From a virus (Duplodnaviria > Heunggongvirae > Uroviricota > Caudoviricetes): 19,148 bases of DNA. This document shows positions 8,020-19,008 of the stretch, one piece after another. The position numbers were made by a program, and so were the translations under genes. Numbering within the stretch: position 1 is the first letter of the stretch; every line of letters begins with the position of its first letter. Where the stretch lies: the IMG/VR virus record IMGVR_UViG_2531839179_000028, one strand, 5' to 3'. The notes beneath the pieces were generated by a model. That model saw only the letters and a program-made list of their open reading frames with translations. It did no database searches and was not told where the DNA came from.

Positions 8020-8852
8020 ACAGTTTAACGGCAAATAACCGTTTGTCGCAACAGCTGGTGGTCAGCGTCGCTGAACACCTGTTGTTACGGCATGAATGCA
8101 GATTACCAAATCTCCTGGCTGTAAGTAACCACAGAGAACTTTACCTGACTGTGGGGGGCGAGTTGTGCAGGAACTTAACCGCTGGTTTCGTGACGGAAGA
8201 GGACTTTATGTTCATGTTATTCGTTGGGAGCCAGAAACACAGCGCGTTATCTATCTTCGCAAAGACTACCCGCATGAGTGCTTTAGTCCTTTGTGGAAAT
8301 TCAAGCGTGATTTTGTTGAGTGTGAAGGACCACCAGCACATTGATTCTGCCATTCCGGGACGTTACACTGTTCAGGCACCTTATAAAGCGGGTGCCGGGA
8401 TTGGCGTCCTGGAATTGATCAAGGCGATATATGACGCGCCAGCGTCTTTTTTATCGTCCGCATTTGCTCACATCAAAGTTATGGTGGGCTGGGCGGGGGC
8501 ATCGAAAGATGCGCCGGTTTCCTTGATCACCGGTTACGCCAACCCCGTTCAGTTCACCACCAGCGAAATTGGCGTTTCCGGTGGTGGAAGTATTTCACCG
8601 ATCAAGGAGGCTGCCATCATGGCTACTGTCCCAGCCCTCACTCGTCTGAATGATGAAGACTTACATAAACTCAGTTATGTAACAACTGCACTACGTGCTC
8701 TGCGCAAGGTAACTCTTTCGGATCCGCAGGCACATCAGGTTCTGGTAGAAACCCTTCTTAACTTGCAAGCTGAACGTATTCGTCTGGCGGATAAGGCTAA
8801 TTTTCATATTCACCGTCTCCTGAATATCAGCGGAGGGCATCGTCATGCTTAA
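8016..8852 (+). CDS. Hypothetical early-right operon protein
   Basis: 278-aa ORF. Its ATG overlaps the upstream stop (ATGA at 8016-8019), implying translational coupling. I recognise no domain. Confidence 0.45.
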   Translation: MNSLTANNRLSQQLVVSVAEHLLLRHECRLPNLLAVSNHRELYLTVGGELCRNLTAGFVTEEDFMFMLFVGSQKHSALSIFAKTTRMSALVLCGNSSVILLSVKDHQHIDSAIPGRYTVQAPYKAGAGIGVLELIKAIYDAPASFLSSAFAHIKVMVGWAGASKDAPVSLITGYANPVQFTTSEIGVSGGGSISPIKEAAIMATVPALTRLNDEDLHKLSYVTTALRALRKVTLSDPQAHQVLVETLLNLQAERIRLADKANFHIHRLLNISGGHRHA

Positions 8853-13522: not shown

Positions 13523-14275
13523 ATGAACCTTGAAGCCTTACCAAAATATTACTCCCCAAAATCTCCAAAATTGAGCGATGACGCACCGGCGACAGGCTCA
13601 GGTGGTTTAACGATTACGGATGTGATGGCTGCGCAGGGGATGGTGCAGTCGAAAGCACCGCTTGGGTTTGCCTTATTCCTGGCAAAAGTTGGTGTTCAGG
13701 ATCCTCAATTTGCGATTGAAGGTCTGCTCAATTACGCGATGGCACTGGATAACCCGACATTGAACAAATTGAGTGAAGAAACCCGGTTACAGATCATCCC
13801 TTACCTTGTGAATTTTGCCTTTGCTGATTATTCCAGGTCTGCGGCAAGTAAGGCTCGCTGTGAGCATTGTGCTGGTACTGGATTTCATAATGTATTGCGC
13901 GAAGTGGTGAAACACTCCAGAAGCGGGGAATCTGTTATCAAGGAAGAGTGGGTGAAGGAACTATGTCAGCATTGTCATGGTAAGGGAGAAGTCAGCACAG
14001 CGTGCAGAGGGTGTAAGGGTAAAGGTATTGTCCTGGATGAAAAAAGGACCCGGCTTCATGGCACGCCTGTTTATAAGATTTGTGGGCGTTGCAATGGAAA
14101 CCGGTTTAGCCGTTTACCAACCACACTGGCGCGGCATCATGTCCAGAAGCTGGTACCAGACCTGACGGATTATCAGTGGTACAAAGGATATGCAGATGTC
14201 ATTGATAAACTGGTTACAAAGTGCTGGCAGGAAGAAGCATATGCAGAGATACAATTGAGAAATGTGACAAGATAA
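13523..14275 (+). CDS. Late-gene antiterminator, Q-like
   Basis: 250 aa with clustered CxxC zinc-binding motifs (CEHCAGTG…CQHCHGKG…CRGCKGKG…CGRCNG). It is the last gene before a strong terminator and the lysis cassette, the canonical Q position. GGAG sits 7 nt upstream of ATG 13523. Confidence 0.6.
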   Translation: MNLEALPKYYSPKSPKLSDDAPATGSGGLTITDVMAAQGMVQSKAPLGFALFLAKVGVQDPQFAIEGLLNYAMALDNPTLNKLSEETRLQIIPYLVNFAFADYSRSAASKARCEHCAGTGFHNVLREVVKHSRSGESVIKEEWVKELCQHCHGKGEVSTACRGCKGKGIVLDEKRTRLHGTPVYKICGRCNGNRFSRLPTTLARHHVQKLVPDLTDYQWYKGYADVIDKLVTKCWQEEAYAEIQLRNVTR

Positions 14276-14306
14276 ATGGTTTTCGCCGAAGATGACGACA
14301 TGATGC

Positions 14307-14335
14307 TTGCATTTTTCAAAAAATATGGATAAGAT
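14307..14335 (+). promoter_or_regulatory. Candidate late promoter (pR'-like) between Q and the tR'-like terminator
   Basis: TTGCAT (14307-14312), 17-nt spacer, TAAGAT (14330-14335). Weak match. The position fits the architecture of lambdoid late promoters, which sit immediately after Q. Confidence 0.3.
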
Positions 14336-14383
14336 TTTCCCAACGATGGGCTTTGTATGTCTACCGTTGATAAGATTTAAGAA

Positions 14384-14406
14384 CCCGCCACTGAGCGGGT
14401 TTTTTT
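14384..14406 (+). terminator. Intrinsic terminator (tR'-like) downstream of Q
   Basis: CCCGC-CACTGA-GCGGG hairpin followed by T7 (14400-14406). An almost identical copy occurs at 16215-16236. Confidence 0.7.
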
Positions 14407-14551
14407 GTGCCAGATGTCTCATGAAACTATGAAATGGATTGGTGCGTTAAACATTTTTTCTTATTATCTTTTAGATTTTGGAGAGATGGTTAACGTCTGT
14501 ATTCCAGAAACTCGATGATTATTTAATAAATTAGTTTCAATGATGCTTCTA

Positions 14552-15703
14552 AATAGCTGCGCGGAATAGTAGATCACTTTGAGGGAACTTAGCCCGGATT
14601 GTGCGATCTGATCAATCGCCAAATCAAAACAAATCACCAACCGGACTGAGCAATGCCGATCATAGCACCAATTTCCCGTGACGAACGACGCCTGATGCAG
14701 AAAGCCATCCATAAAACACACGATAAAAATTATGCCCGCAGACTGACTGCCATGCTGATGCTGCACCGGGGCGACCGTGTCAGCGACGTTGCCAGAACGC
14801 TCTGCTGCGCCCGTTCCTCTGTTGGACGCTGGATTAACTGGTTCACGCAGTCGGGTGTTGAGGGACTGAAATCATTACCTGCCGGGCGTGCCCGTCGCTG
14901 GCCGTTTGAGCATATCTGCACACTGTTACGTGAGCTGGTAAAACATTCTCCCGGCGACTTTGGCTACCAGCGTTCACGCTGGAGTACAGAACTGCTGGCA
15001 ATAAAAATCAATGAGATAACCGGTTGCCAGTTAAATGCCGGAACCGTTCGCCGCTGGTTGCCGTCTGCGGGGATTGTGTGGCGAAGGGCTGCGCCAACTC
15101 TGCGTATCCGTGACCCGCATAAAGATGAAAAGATGGCAGCAATCCATAAAGCACTGGACGAATGCAGCGCAGAGCATCCGGTCTTTTATGAAGATGAAGT
15201 GGATATCCATCTTCATCCCAAAATCGGTGCGGACTGGCAACTGCGCGGACAGCAAAAACGGGTGGTCACGCCGGGACAGAATGAAAAATATTATCTGGCC
15301 GGAGCGCTGCACAGCGGGACAGGTAAAGTCAGCTATGTGGGCGGCAACAGCAAAAGTTCGGCGCTGTTCATCAGCCTGCTGAAGCGGCTTAAAGCGACAT
15401 ACCGTCGGGCGAAAACCATCACGCTGATCGTGGACAACTACATTATCCACAAAAGCCGGGAAACACAGAGCTGGCTGAAGGAGAACCCGAAGTTCAGGGT
15501 CATTTATCAGCCGGTTTACTCGCCATGGGTGAATCATGTTGAACGGCTATGGCAGGCACTTCACGACACAATAACGCGTAATCATCAGTGCCGCTCAATG
15601 TGGCAACTGTTGAAAAAGTTCGCCATTTTATGGAAACCGTCAGCCCATTCCCCGGAGGCAAACATGGACTGGCAAAAGTGTAGCGGTATTAAGCGCAGCT
15701 ATT
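14552..15703 (+). mobile_element. IS630-family insertion sequence (1152 bp) with TA target-site duplication at a CTAG target
   Basis: Terminal inverted repeats AATAGCTGCGC… (14552-) and …GCGCAGCTATT (-15703). Flanking TA at 14550-14551 and 15704-15705; removing the element regenerates CTAG, the target I recall for IS630. It carries a single transposase ORF. Confidence 0.8.
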
Positions 15704-15786
15704 TAGGTTATGACTGTAATGAAAAAGGTATTAATAGCAGCGATAGGTTTTTGTTTAGTTGGTTGTGCAGGTATGAAATTACCTGA
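14653..15786 (+). CDS. IS630-family transposase with an apparent 1-nt deletion near the 3' end, causing read-through beyond the IS
   Basis: The ORF matches the IS630 transposase as I recall it through residue ~322. At the A5 run (15613-15617) one extra A would restore a frame ending …LLKKVRHFMETVSPFPGGKHGLAKV-stop at 15681-15683, inside the IS, for 343 aa. As sequenced, the frame runs across the right inverted repeat to 15786. Confidence 0.8.
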   Translation: MPIIAPISRDERRLMQKAIHKTHDKNYARRLTAMLMLHRGDRVSDVARTLCCARSSVGRWINWFTQSGVEGLKSLPAGRARRWPFEHICTLLRELVKHSPGDFGYQRSRWSTELLAIKINEITGCQLNAGTVRRWLPSAGIVWRRAAPTLRIRDPHKDEKMAAIHKALDECSAEHPVFYEDEVDIHLHPKIGADWQLRGQQKRVVTPGQNEKYYLAGALHSGTGKVSYVGGNSKSSALFISLLKRLKATYRRAKTITLIVDNYIIHKSRETQSWLKENPKFRVIYQPVYSPWVNHVERLWQALHDTITRNHQCRSMWQLLKKFAILWKPSAHSPEANMDWQKCSGIKRSYLGYDCNEKGINSSDRFLFSWLCRYEIT

Positions 15787-16135
15787 GTATTCGCAAGTTA
15801 AAGCAAGTCCGTATTATACAGATTGCCGTGCGTTTGCCATGGATGTTTATAAAAATGATGGATACAGCAAAATTGCGAAAACTACTATCCTTAGCATGGA
15901 TGATGTGAAGGCTAGATATATTGTGACAGGGTGTGTAGTTGCTATGGGGAAAAACACTGTAGAGGAAATTAAAGCTGATCTCTCTGCTAAAGGGAGTTCT
16001 TTTGGGCTTATCAGTGGAGCTTGTTCTAGTGCGGCATGTCGGGTTGATGTAGAGCAGCAAATGAACGCTTATGTACTTGGTAGTTATTATGCTGCAAATA
16101 AAAAATTCCCGGATAAAATGAAAGCAGAGTTTTAA
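15719..16135 (+). CDS. AT-rich secreted lipoprotein of unknown function (moron)
   Basis: Signal peptide with lipobox (MKKVLIAAIGFCLVGCAG). 138 aa from ATG 15719; an alternative ATG at 15710 adds MTV. Low GC compared with flanking phage genes. A terminator copy follows, and IS630 sits 13-14 bp upstream of the start. Confidence 0.6.
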   Translation: MKKVLIAAIGFCLVGCAGMKLPEYSQVKASPYYTDCRAFAMDVYKNDGYSKIAKTTILSMDDVKARYIVTGCVVAMGKNTVEEIKADLSAKGSSFGLISGACSSAACRVDVEQQMNAYVLGSYYAANKKFPDKMKAEF

Positions 16136-16214
16136 GTAAACCTTGTTTTCGATTATATGTCGAAGATAAATGTTAGTAACGGCATAATAAGTAAATATAT
16201 AGCTGTGATAGCAA

Positions 16215-16236
16215 CCCGCCACTGAGCGGGTTTTTT
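16215..16236 (+). terminator. Intrinsic terminator, second copy of the tR'-like sequence
   Basis: Identical CCCGC-CACTGA-GCGGG hairpin followed by T6. The wider stretch 16213-16240 is a near-identical direct repeat of 14382-14410. Confidence 0.65.
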
Positions 16237-16334
16237 GTACCTGTAAACTTGGTGCAGTACAGTAAACACGCTGGTGGTCGTGAATACTGACTTTTTATCT
16301 TGCTGGCTTTTTAGACAAGAGTTATTGGTATGTC

Positions 16335-16562
16335 ATGTTAACCAGAAGGGAAAAAGACATGATAAAACAGCAAGATATGACAGAAACCGCCGCCGCAGTC
16401 CTTCATTTCTTACCTGCTGACAAGTGGGTAACGCCACGCATGATGACGAGAACTACCGGAGTAAGCGAAGCCCAGTGCCAGTTAATACTGACTCAGTTAG
16501 TTCTGGCGGGTCTGGCGAAGGATAACGGCGGGTACGGGAATAAATTCAGACGCTGCCAGTAA
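16335..16562 (+). CDS. Small hypothetical protein upstream of the methyltransferase
   Basis: 75-aa ORF (alternative start at MIKQQD with a GGGA-rich upstream region). I recognise no domain, so it may be non-coding. Confidence 0.3.
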   Translation: MLTRREKDMIKQQDMTETAAAVLHFLPADKWVTPRMMTRTTGVSEAQCQLILTQLVLAGLAKDNGGYGNKFRRCQ

Positions 16563-16712: not shown

Positions 16713-17765
16713 ATGAAAAATACTGTAAAAATAAACAGTGTTGATTTGATCAACGCTGATTGCCTGCATTTTATTCAGTCCCTGCCTGATGATTCCATTG
16801 ACCTGATTGTTACCGATCCGCCTTACTTCAAGGTGAAACCCAACGGTTGGGACAATCAGTGGAAAGGGGATGAAGATTACCTTAAGTGGCTGGACCACTG
16901 TCTGGCCCAGTTCTGGCGGGTGTTAAAACCTGCCGGAAGCCTTTACCTGTTCTGTGGGCATCGCCTGGCATCTGATATTGAGATCATGATGCGTGAACGT
17001 TTCAACGTGCTTAACCATATCATCTGGGCGAAGCCGTCCGGACGTTGGAATGGGTGTAATAAAGAAAGTCTGCGCGCATATTTTCCTGCCACAGAGCGCG
17101 TTCTGTTTGCTGAACATTACCAGGGGCCATATCGCGGCAAAAGTGACGGCTATGCGGCAAAAGAAAGGGCACTCAAACAGCACATAATGGCACCGCTGAT
17201 ATCGTATTTCAGGGATGCTCGTGCCGAACTGGGTATAACGGCAAAACAAATTGCCGAAGCCACAGGTAAGAAAAATATGGTTTCCCACTGGTTTGGTGCC
17301 AGTCAGTGGCAGTTGCCGAATGAGGCTGACTATCGGAAGTTACAGGCACTGTTTTCCCGTATAGCGGCAGAGAAGTTTCAGGAACAACAACTGGAACAAC
17401 CACACCACCAGCTGGTGGCATCTTATGATTCACTGAATCGCAAATATTCTGAATTGCTGGATGAGTTTAAATCTCTCCGGCGCTATTTCTCCGTATCAGT
17501 CTCCGTGCCTTATACCGATGTCTGGATGCATAAACCCGTTCAGTTCTACCCGGGTAAACATCCGTGTGAGAAACCGGCGGATATGCTCAGGCAAATAATC
17601 AATGCCAGTAGTCGACCTGGTGATCTGGTTGCTGATTTTTTTATGGGATCCGGTTCCACAATAAAAGCAGCAATGGCGCTGGGGCGTCGGGCCTTAGGTG
17701 TTGAGCTTGAGTCAGAGCGGTTTAACCAGACAGTGAAAGAGATAAACGAGCTGGTGGGGAAATAA
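16713..17765 (+). CDS. Beta-class DNA amino-methyltransferase (N6-adenine or N4-cytosine), orphan
   Basis: 350 aa with motif IV DPPY (VTDPPYF) near the N-terminus and the AdoMet-binding motif FFMGSGST near the C-terminus, the permuted order typical of beta-class methyltransferases. No adjacent restriction endonuclease gene. Confidence 0.85.
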   Translation: MKNTVKINSVDLINADCLHFIQSLPDDSIDLIVTDPPYFKVKPNGWDNQWKGDEDYLKWLDHCLAQFWRVLKPAGSLYLFCGHRLASDIEIMMRERFNVLNHIIWAKPSGRWNGCNKESLRAYFPATERVLFAEHYQGPYRGKSDGYAAKERALKQHIMAPLISYFRDARAELGITAKQIAEATGKKNMVSHWFGASQWQLPNEADYRKLQALFSRIAAEKFQEQQLEQPHHQLVASYDSLNRKYSELLDEFKSLRRYFSVSVSVPYTDVWMHKPVQFYPGKHPCEKPADMLRQIINASSRPGDLVADFFMGSGSTIKAAMALGRRALGVELESERFNQTVKEINELVGK

Positions 17766-17831: not shown

Positions 17832-18047
17832 ATGAAATCCATGGATAAGTTAACAACGGGTGTCGCCTATGGCACCTCAGCAGGTAGTGCCGGTTACTGG
17901 TTTTTACAACTGCTCGATAAAGTCACGCCCTCACAGTGGGCAGCAATAGGTGTGCTGGGTAGCCTGGTATTTGGCCTGCTGACGTACCTGACAAACCTTT
18001 ATTTCAAGATTAAAGAAGATAAGCGCAAGGCTGCGAGAGGTGAATAA
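17832..18047 (+). CDS. Class II holin (phage 21 S21-like pinholin) with dual-start motif
   Basis: 71 aa ([26 protein letters not shown]…[38 protein letters not shown]), closely resembling S21 as I recall it. Met1 and Met4 give the holin/antiholin dual start. GGTGGGG RBS upstream. Confidence 0.85.
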
Positions 18048-18544
18048 TGCCTCCATCATTACGAAAAGCCGTTGCTGCTGCTATTGGTGGCGGAGCAATT
18101 GCTATAGCATCAGTGTTAATTACTGGCCCAAGTGGTAACGATGGTCTGGAAGGTGTCAGCTACATACCATACAAAGATATTGTTGGTGTATGGACTGTAT
18201 GTCACGGGCATACAGGAAAAGACATCATGCTCGGTAAAACGTATACCAAAGCAGAATGCAAAGCCCTCCTGAATAAAGACCTTGCCACGGTCGCCAGACA
18301 AATTAACCCGTACATCAAAGTCGATATACCGGAAACAACGCGCGGCGCTCTTTACTCGTTCGTCTACAACGTGGGTGCTGGCAATTTCAGAACATCGACG
18401 CTTCTTCGCAAAATAAACCAGGGCGATATCAAAGGCGCATGTGACCAGCTACGTCGCTGGACATACGCTGGCGGTAAGCAATGGAAAGGCCTGATGACTC
18501 GTCGTGAGATTGAGCGTGAAGTCTGTTTGTGGGGGCAACAATGA
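18047..18544 (+). CDS. SAR (signal-anchor-release) endolysin, lysozyme family
   Basis: 165 aa. The N-terminal Gly/Ala-rich weakly hydrophobic segment ([20 protein letters not shown]) is typical of SAR domains, followed by a T4-lysozyme-like catalytic region (EGVSY…[11 protein letters not shown]). The start overlaps the holin stop (TAATG). Confidence 0.85.
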
Positions 18545-19008
18545 GCAGAGTAACCGCGATTATCTCCGCTCTGGTTATCTGCATCATCGTCTGCCTGTCG
18601 TGGGCGGTCAATCATTACCGTGATAACGCCATCGCCTACAAAGAACAGCGAGATAAAAAAGTCAGTGAGCTGAAGCAGGCGACCGCCACCATTACTGACA
18701 TGCAGCAGCGCCAGCGTTCTGCTGATGCACTCGATGCTAAATACACGAAGGAGTTAGCTGATGCGAAAGCTGAAAATGATGCTCTTCGGCGCAAGCTTGA
18801 TAATGGTGGTCGGGTGTTCGTCAAAGGAAAATGCCCTGTGCCATCCTCAGCCGAAACCTCCAGCGCCTCCGGCATGGGCAATGATGCCACCGTCGAACTC
18901 TCTCCAGTTGCTGGACGAAACGTTCTCGGTATCCGGGACGGAATCATCAGCGACCAAACAGCACTGAGAACGCTTCAGGAATACATCAGGACGCAATGCC
19001 TTCGATGA
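18541..19008 (+). CDS. Rz-like inner-membrane spanin (i-spanin)
   Basis: N-terminal transmembrane segment ([18 protein letters not shown]) followed by a coiled-coil-rich periplasmic domain. ATG 18541 overlaps the endolysin stop (ATGA) and follows GGGGG. An in-frame ATG at 18529 is an alternative start. Confidence 0.75.
18761..18967 (+). CDS. Rz1-like outer-membrane lipoprotein spanin (o-spanin), embedded in the +1 frame of Rz
   Basis: 68 aa with signal peptide and lipobox (LIMVVGCSS) and a proline-rich mature region (PQPKPPAPP). Lies wholly within the Rz gene, the classic Rz/Rz1 arrangement. Confidence 0.7.

Follow-up and report, generated by a model that had tools for sequence, protein, structure and literature searches.

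Lambdoid morons, in the sense of the Hendrix/Juhala concept (lambda bor and lom, HK97 gp15), are single extra genes that are present or absent between near-identical phages; they are AT-rich, lie between functional modules, and carry a terminator and probably a promoter of their own. Cargo is also found in the interval between the late antiterminator gene Q, with its terminator tR', and the holin gene, a site that is occupied by the stx genes of Stx phages and by cspB/cspF in the Qin prophage. A further point of reference is provided by small phage-encoded lipoproteins with a disulfide, Llp of T5 and Cor of T1 and phi80. Llp is an outer-membrane lipoprotein that faces the periplasm, where it attaches to the periplasmic side of its target and alters it by an allosteric effect; its role in phage exclusion is established, and Cor has been proposed to act similarly (PMC9586334). 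Here we analyse a locus in IMG/VR record IMGVR_UViG_2531839179_000028, a 19,148-nt stretch of tailed-phage DNA (hereafter, the window) that represents the left two-thirds of a lambda-like prophage. Directly 3' of the tR' terminator of its lambda-type late unit lies an AT-rich moron cassette, 677 bp long when uninterrupted, which encodes a lipoprotein, is closed by a second copy of the same terminator, and in the window is split by the insertion sequence (IS) IS630.

The cassette shares with the lambdoid morons the features listed above, with a candidate site in the place of the promoter, although its product is unrelated to Bor, Lom or gp15, its terminator is a copy of the phage's own tR', and expression from the repressed prophage is here a prediction. 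It also falls into the interval between Q/tR' and the holin gene that serves as a cargo site in Stx phages, and other cargo fills this site in other E. coli prophages; however, its product is not a toxin, and terminators stand on both sides of it, so that it does not depend on read-through from the late promoter PR' alone. In kind, the locus is a standard moron with a standard IS insertion.

The two terminators that flank the segment, at 14382-14410 and 16213-16240 (both on the + strand), had been described as near-identical, and they are clearly related. The 24-mer AACCCGCCACTGAGCGGGTTTTTT occurs at 14382-14405 and again at 16213-16236, with 24 of 24 positions the same, and the window holds no further match to it when up to three mismatches are allowed (0 expected in 200 shuffles). 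Each copy consists of a 7-bp G+C-rich stem (AACCCGC/GCGGGTT), a 6-nt loop and a run of Ts; in copy 1 the stem is formed by 14382-88 and 14395-14401, the loop is CACTGA, and seven Ts follow. Past the 24-mer, the only difference between the copies is T7+GTGCC in copy 1 versus T6+GTACC in copy 2. A simple terminator scan reported copy 2 and missed copy 1.

The original prediction held the segment between Q and the lysis genes to be cargo, and that it is a dispensable cassette is shown by isogenic phages with and without it, which define its boundaries. We built an artificial query in which the 3' end of Q, through the hairpin, was joined straight to the DNA after the second hairpin. This query aligned unbroken with phage vB_EcoM-720R4 (99.0% identity), with Shigella phage SfV (93.7% over the first 410 nt) and with E. 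coli genomes such as ACN001, MMC-J-0020 and CT282; SfV and vB_EcoM-720R4 each possess Q, a single terminator and the orf47-like gene. The query fell into two pieces 677 bp apart in Ayreon, mEp460, 15 Stx2c-converting phages, the IAI39 prophage and numerous further genomes, and the extra 677 bp is also present in PhiR47_1 and phiSTEC1575-Stx2k. In the alignment, the divergence of the cassette starts right after the hairpin and its T-run. Copy 1 equals the sole post-Q terminator of 720R4 and of SfV, where it is annotated as a rho-independent terminator, and from copy 2 onward the sequence is contiguous with the single terminator of the moron-less 720R4. The presence or absence of the cassette at exact boundaries is matched by a base composition that deviates from that of the neighbouring phage genes: the GC content of the segment is 0.34-0.42 (38% in the lipoprotein gene), compared with 0.45-0.58 in the flanking DNA and 0.49-0.57 within the IS. 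A copy of the tR' terminator has been reused as the cassette's own end, the cargo being built into the late leader.

The hairpin also appears as a mosaic joint. In a spread sample drawn from the 1,903 matching records of E. coli genomes, there were many in which the match to the joined query did not begin until the first base of the hairpin, the Q module being another one, and others in which it stopped at the hairpin end, with different genes downstream. Because these records share sequence on one side of it only, the conserved tR' hairpin may be a recombination breakpoint among lambdoid phages.

The DNA immediately upstream of the cassette has the parts of a lambda-type late control unit, namely a Q homologue, a promoter with a pause element and an intrinsic terminator. 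Q (13523-14275, + strand; 250 amino acids with a zinc-finger insert) belongs to the lambda-Q family, with matches to Pfam Antiterm (PF03589, E 1.3e-53), to phrog_127 (Q-like) and to the lambda Q chain 7ubm_Q (E 1.3e-37), and its relatives are annotated as antitermination protein or ydfT. A PR'-like late promoter with a pause element (14307-14350, + strand) begins 32 bases 3' of the Q stop codon and comprises a -35 hexamer TTGCAT (14307-12), a 17-nt spacer, a -10 hexamer TAAGAT (14330-35), TTTCCC, AACGAT (14342-47) and GGG. Alignment with lambda PR' (TTGACT-17-TAAATT-TGACTC-AACGATGGG) reveals an identical register; lambda PR' reads AACGAT-GGG after TGACTC, so that AACGAT is common to both promoters, and the position-weight scores are 9.1 for the window and 13.6 for lambda. 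In lambda, AACGAT is a -10-like element that causes the sigma-70-dependent pause where Q loads, and we assume that 14307-14350 functions as lambda PR' is known to. The first hairpin sits ~60 nt 3' of the PR' start. Because it is preceded by a lambda-family Q and by PR' in the lambda register, copy 1 is by its context tR', where Q antitermination is predicted to act, and does not belong to the cargo. The bracketing by duplicated terminators stands as originally described, with the refinement that the upstream copy is part of the late operon.

The cassette is widespread, and sequenced phages already contain it without its having been recognised. It occurs in ~215 of 5,426 complete E. coli genomes (~4%) and in strains of sequence type (ST) 131 such as JJ1886. 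The states with and without it both exist within E. coli, and the Stx2c phages carry it directly 3' of Q. In phiSTEC1575-Stx2k (locus L012, 4700-8300), the cassette and the second terminator lie between PR'/tR' and the tRNA-stx2k genes, and PR' transcription of the toxin genes must therefore cross two terminator copies. The same post-tR' site is filled in E. coli STLEFF_29 (NZ_CP058879.1; locus L017, 840-1480) by a different AT-rich cassette, which encodes a 176-amino-acid protein with no Pfam match (WP_000966854.1) and has a distinct terminator of its own at its 3' side; there, the T-run of the upstream hairpin is disrupted. IAI39 contains ClbS/DfsB and ISEc53 slightly further downstream.

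A Salmonella orthologue of the lipoprotein (77% amino acid identity) lies between a different type of Q (DUF1133/Phage_antitermQ) and a different lysis cassette (Phage_holin_8, GH19). It too has a terminator upstream, CCCGCCACTGAGCGGG+T7+GTACCTGAAAC, and a diverged one of its own downstream, CCCGCATTGCGCGGG+T5+GTATCCGAAAC. Since this orthologue is likewise bracketed by related terminators, the arrangement of terminator, gene and terminator copy is old and maintained. Other homologues are found in an early-left prophage region beside VapBC and KilR, in SSU5-like phage-plasmids of Klebsiella and Buttiauxella, and at a non-phage chromosomal site that adjoins blc and a type II secretion cluster. 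The gene stands alone in all these sites and therefore must carry its own expression signals. A search started from the most distant member of the family (P0016) found only itself, in a transposon-rich context that was uninformative. In the phage-plasmids, a second lipoprotein gene of 99 amino acids follows ~10 bp 3' of the homologue (Buttiauxella L006, 5446-5745; Klebsiella L013, 4428-4727), forming a two-lipoprotein operon, and in L006 a Lit-like Peptidase_U49 gene lies near the two. The 99-residue protein was considered as a paralogue and rejected, as only the signal peptides align.

The lipoprotein gene itself (15719-16135, + strand; 138 codons) is a real, conserved open reading frame (ORF) with a lipobox and no function-assigning match, in keeping with the AT-rich gene for a secreted lipoprotein that had been predicted. 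An alternative ATG lies upstream at 15710, from which PGAP calls a form of 141 amino acids. The signal peptide, MKKVLIAAIGFCLVG, ends before the Cys of the lipobox LVGC, and G15 and C16, the predicted site of lipidation, are invariant in nine homologues, as expected of a substrate of Lgt and LspA. At position +2, the E. coli, Salmonella and Klebsiella forms have Ala and the Buttiauxella form has Ser; none has Asp. Across the nine sequences 51 residues are invariant, and there is little or no variation in Cys36, Cys72, Cys102, Cys107 and the motifs CRxFAxxVYKNDGYSK and IVTGCVVAMGK. The ratio of nonsynonymous to synonymous substitution rates (dN/dS) is 0.09-0.22 wherever dS is unsaturated, dS being saturated across genera; by these measures the gene is under strong purifying selection. 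AlphaFold2 predicts a helical bundle (predicted local distance difference test score, pLDDT, 83.5; predicted template modelling score, pTM, 0.78) with helices at 33-45, 62-76, 81-100 and 105-129, so that the mature protein of ~122 amino acids is modelled, with good confidence, as a helical bundle with four cysteines. Going by the secondary structure of the model, the cysteines may pair as Cys36-Cys72 and Cys102-Cys107. Taken together, these predictions show the product as a small secreted, lipid-anchored, disulfide-containing helical protein.

The family to which it belongs is small and narrow. It matches phrog_4748 (E 1.8e-89), a PHROG without an assigned function; it amounts to 11 clusters among 5.8 billion proteins, and an exhaustive profile search of 1.84 billion representatives retrieved eight proteins, all of the same narrow family. 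All members come from Enterobacteriaceae, and every source labels them "hypothetical protein" or "Lipoprotein". No Pfam family was detected at E<=0.01 and no NCBIfam match; the PADLOC defence hidden Markov models returned no family at E<=0.1; a sequence search against PDB chains gave only noise (uL14m, E 0.05), and structure comparison left the predicted fold without a meaningful match to solved structures. A literature search on the lipoprotein (WP_000217632) found nothing. Pfam holds a model for the Bor/Iss lipoproteins, and this serum-resistance family was not matched at the same threshold. A marginal tblastn match in Pseudomonas phage UF_RH1 was taken to be spurious, as it has no coherent ORF beneath it.

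How the gene might be transcribed is suggested by the 5' part of the cassette (14411-14551, + strand). In a position-weight scan, the best promoter-like site there consists of TTGGTG (14439-44), 17 nt and TATTAT (14462-67), with a score of 8.2, and at the aligned position the best Salmonella site is TTGGTA-18-TATCAT, with a score of 9.5. We regard 14439-14467 as a candidate sigma-70 promoter; it is the only promoter-like site conserved between E. coli and Salmonella. A 37-codon ORF that overlaps it (14418-14531, + strand) appears in the annotation of phage Ayreon as a hypothetical protein; because it is poorly conserved in the Salmonella cassette, this interval is probably non-coding leader or promoter DNA. 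A low-threshold Rfam search of 14200-16400 gave only sub-threshold leader-like matches, which were caused by the terminator hairpins, and a tRNA search found none.

With the cassette uninterrupted, the lipoprotein gene would be transcribed in the lysogen from its own sigma-70 promoter (~14439-14467), while tR' upstream would insulate it from the constitutive PR'. A promoter-bearing insert 3' of tR' would drive holin and endolysin in the lysogen, and hence needs a terminator of its own; the duplicated tR' would supply one, and copy 2 would keep moron transcripts out of these genes. After induction, Q-modified RNA polymerase would pass both terminators, and the lipoprotein would also be made late. 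Its product probably alters a component of the envelope to the benefit of the lysogen.

IS630 (14552-15703, + strand; 1152 bp) has terminal inverted repeats (14549-14568 and 15687-15706) and the DDE_3 and helix-turn-helix domains, and it is flanked by a TA target-site duplication (14550-14551 on the left, 15704-15705 on the right) within a CTAG target. The comparison with IS-free relatives that had been proposed together with the prediction identifies the empty site as GCTTCTAGGTTA (GCTT-CTAG-GTTA), which in the window reads CTA-[IS630]-TAG; the uninterrupted sequence, TGATGCTTCTAGGTTATGACTG, is present in the ~215 complete E. coli genomes and in phages Ayreon and mEp460. The inverted repeats, the TA duplication and the insertion into CTAG are those of IS630 of Shigella sonnei, a member of the IS630/Tc1/mariner superfamily. 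A preference of IS630 for CTAG is named in the title of Tenzen and Ohtsubo (1991), as listed in PMC2170065.

The copy in the window is 99.8% identical to annotated IS630 and has the same orientation as the late operon. It differs from the annotated IS630 of a pINV plasmid by one synonymous substitution and by the loss of one A from an A6 run near 15613. This 1-nt deletion shifts the transposase frame (14653-15786, + strand) after residue 321, replacing the last 22 amino acids by a 56-residue out-of-frame tail, so that in place of the intact 343-amino-acid DDE transposase there is a 377-amino-acid frame that retains the DDE_3 match. Unlike in the reference IS630, the shifted frame extends into the neighbouring gene: it crosses the right inverted repeat to 15786 and overlaps the lipoprotein gene over the initial 68 nt. 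Translation of the extended frame could hinder initiation at 15719 or become coupled to it.

Between the duplicated TA and the ATG at 15719 there are 13 nt, in agreement with the 13-14 bp originally given, and indeed all coordinates of that prediction proved correct. The insertion lies 84 bp 3' of the candidate -10 and directly 5' of an AGG that aligns with the Salmonella Shine-Dalgarno sequence. On this alignment, the ribosome-binding site is spared and the candidate promoter is displaced by 1152 bp, much as had been proposed when IS630 was placed between the gene and its presumed promoter. Expression of the lipoprotein in the lysogen would probably be lowered, or would depend on read-through from the transposase gene. 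Because a + strand scan inside IS630 found no terminator-like site, Q-modified polymerase should still cross the IS and reach the late genes.

The allele is rare and strain-specific: among the 5,426 complete E. coli genomes none has IS630 at the lipoprotein site, the left junction gave no matches when GTDB species representatives were scanned for it, and the identical arrangement, including the 377-amino-acid frameshifted frame, was found in a single assembly, on one contig of GCA_000211935.2. The closest IS630 copies are on pINV plasmids, which would fit a Shigella or enteroinvasive E. coli background.

The best overall explanation of the locus, which we hold with moderate confidence, is a moron that has its own promoter, expresses an envelope lipoprotein in the lysogen, and has been uncoupled from that promoter by IS630. 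Several points weigh against it. The 14439-14467 site is a moderate consensus match that a stricter consensus scan did not list, and for this reason we consider the promoter suggestive only. Outer-membrane sorting is predicted from the +2 rule alone. Family, tblastn and structure searches revealed no sequence or fold likeness to Llp, Cor, Bor or any defence protein, and carriage of the gene is independent of the type of the tail-tip protein J. If the weakness of the promoter prediction were given full weight, the lipoprotein could be a purely late gene, made only when Q carries PR' transcription past tR', and serving to inactivate receptors on the debris of lysing cells or, like T5 Llp, to block superinfection during the latent period. 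Both in E. coli and in the Salmonella locus it is the first gene after tR', in the path of the PR' transcript, and Llp has been termed a "lytic conversion" protein (PMC9586334). Yet a polymerase that is resistant to terminators has no need of a terminator belonging to the gene, and one follows every late-region copy examined; furthermore, the homologues by VapBC/KilR in the early-left region, near replication genes in phage-plasmids and at the chromosomal site are all outside late operons. We consider a purely late gene possible but rather doubtful. As for two terminators that look alike by coincidence around a chance or decaying reading frame, nothing speaks for this beyond the general abundance of GC-hairpin terminators, and it is ruled out, to a degree that makes it hardly conceivable, by the identity of the repeats, the invariant residues and dN/dS.

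With respect to what the lipoprotein does, our leading guess, made by analogy, is a role in protection or exclusion similar to that of Llp and Cor. Llp and Cor offer a plausible working model and not a family to which the protein belongs: a mature helical bundle of ~122 amino acids with four cysteines, unlinked in its carriage to the tail-tip protein, has no detectable similarity to them in sequence or fold. When 50,697 phage records were searched with the lipoprotein by tblastn, the matches were confined to family members and three of marginal quality, with no record of T5, T1, phi80 or N15 among them. The more specific idea, that it masks the receptor of its own phage as an exclusion lipoprotein of the Cor/Llp type, draws on its being a small phage-borne lipoprotein with disulfides and a predicted outer-membrane location, and on a mechanism with precedent (PMC9586334). 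We judge it improbable, as its best PHROG has no assigned function, the fold is helical and of twice the size of Llp, and the lipoprotein gene is missing from many phages whose J C-terminus matches that of the near-identical IS-free relative at 85% identity or more; the carriers mEp460 and Ayreon fall outside the best 60 J matches. The gene also reaches SSU5-like phage-plasmids and a non-phage chromosomal site. This uncoupling from J argues against masking of the phage's own receptor and remains compatible with a broader role at the envelope or in exclusion. An accessory function in lysis, for example as an o-spanin-like or antiholin-like protein, might be suspected for a lipoprotein encoded upstream of lysis genes, but the window already contains a complete set of holin, endolysin and Rz/Rz1. 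A terminator, an ORF and the methylase gene intervene, the holin being 1.7 kb away; the gene is missing from otherwise identical phages and travels with unrelated lysis cassettes (Phage_holin_8 and GH19 in Salmonella), and its product has neither a C-terminal transmembrane segment nor the proline-rich character of spanins. Identity with the o-spanin Rz1 was rejected outright, since the gene is not within or next to an i-spanin gene and the window has its own Rz/Rz1, with the true Rz1 (18761-18967) inside Rz. We therefore think a lysis role extremely unlikely, and the homology and structure searches likewise gave no indication of a known lysis or core phage gene, the outcome that the original prediction had named as its refutation. 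More speculatively, and with considerable reserve, phrog_4748 might found a new class of periplasm-facing outer-membrane lipoproteins whose disulfide-stapled four-helix fold has not been seen before, and which remodel or block a machine of the host envelope, be it a receptor, a transporter or a complex for secretion or assembly.

The remainder of the window is that of a lambda-like prophage. Its gene order begins with the integrase (386-1609), followed by an early region with a ymfK/ymfT-type immunity module, by RusA, KilA-N and DUF968 genes, and by Q. The early region also contains two + strand Rfam matches above the gathering score, isrK (64.2 bits; 8376-8452) and C4 antisense RNA (82.3 bits; 8477-8564), which look like an antisense immunity element of the P1/P7 c4/ant type inside the early region of a lambdoid prophage. 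On the other side of the segment studied here, the first late-operon gene outside the cassette encodes an orf47-like protein of 67 amino acids (16359-16562; phrog_331), and a DNA methyltransferase (16713-17765), also part of the late operon, comes next. The lysis cassette (17832-19008) comprises a phage-21-type holin (17832-18047; Pfam Phage_holin_2_1), a lysozyme (18047-18544; Pfam Phage_lysozyme), and Rz, from a GTG at 18529 to 19008, in which the Rz1 lipoprotein is embedded (both from the ORF list); all of these genes are on the + strand, and in the annotation of relatives the lysis genes are labelled essD, rrrD and lysis protein. An IS-free prophage with 99.4% identity is located between yjjG and prfC in E. 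coli 36C_1_fosA3, where it runs on into lambda-like head and tail genes, J, Lom and a side tail fibre. Near prfC, at its right end and outside the window (L020, 21480-23084), there are genes for a TIR-domain anti-phage reverse transcriptase and a DinI-like protein.

These findings leave the current understanding of phage biology unchanged. The comparison of phages with and without the cassette is a clean example of tR' reused in two roles, as an insulator and as a stop signal, and the IS630 allele, apparently a natural mutant uncoupled from its promoter, might be used as a control. Stx2c and Stx2k phages carry the cassette just upstream of their toxin genes. A common cassette whose product is without known functional or fold relatives makes a reasonable small target in the search for a new conversion or exclusion function. 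If the protein did represent the new class of envelope-directed lipoproteins raised above, lysogens would be expected to resist heterologous phages, colicins or host factors, and the spread of the gene over lambdoid prophages, including those of Stx2c and Stx2k phages and ST131 strains, and over Klebsiella phage-plasmids would reflect a broadly useful conversion function.

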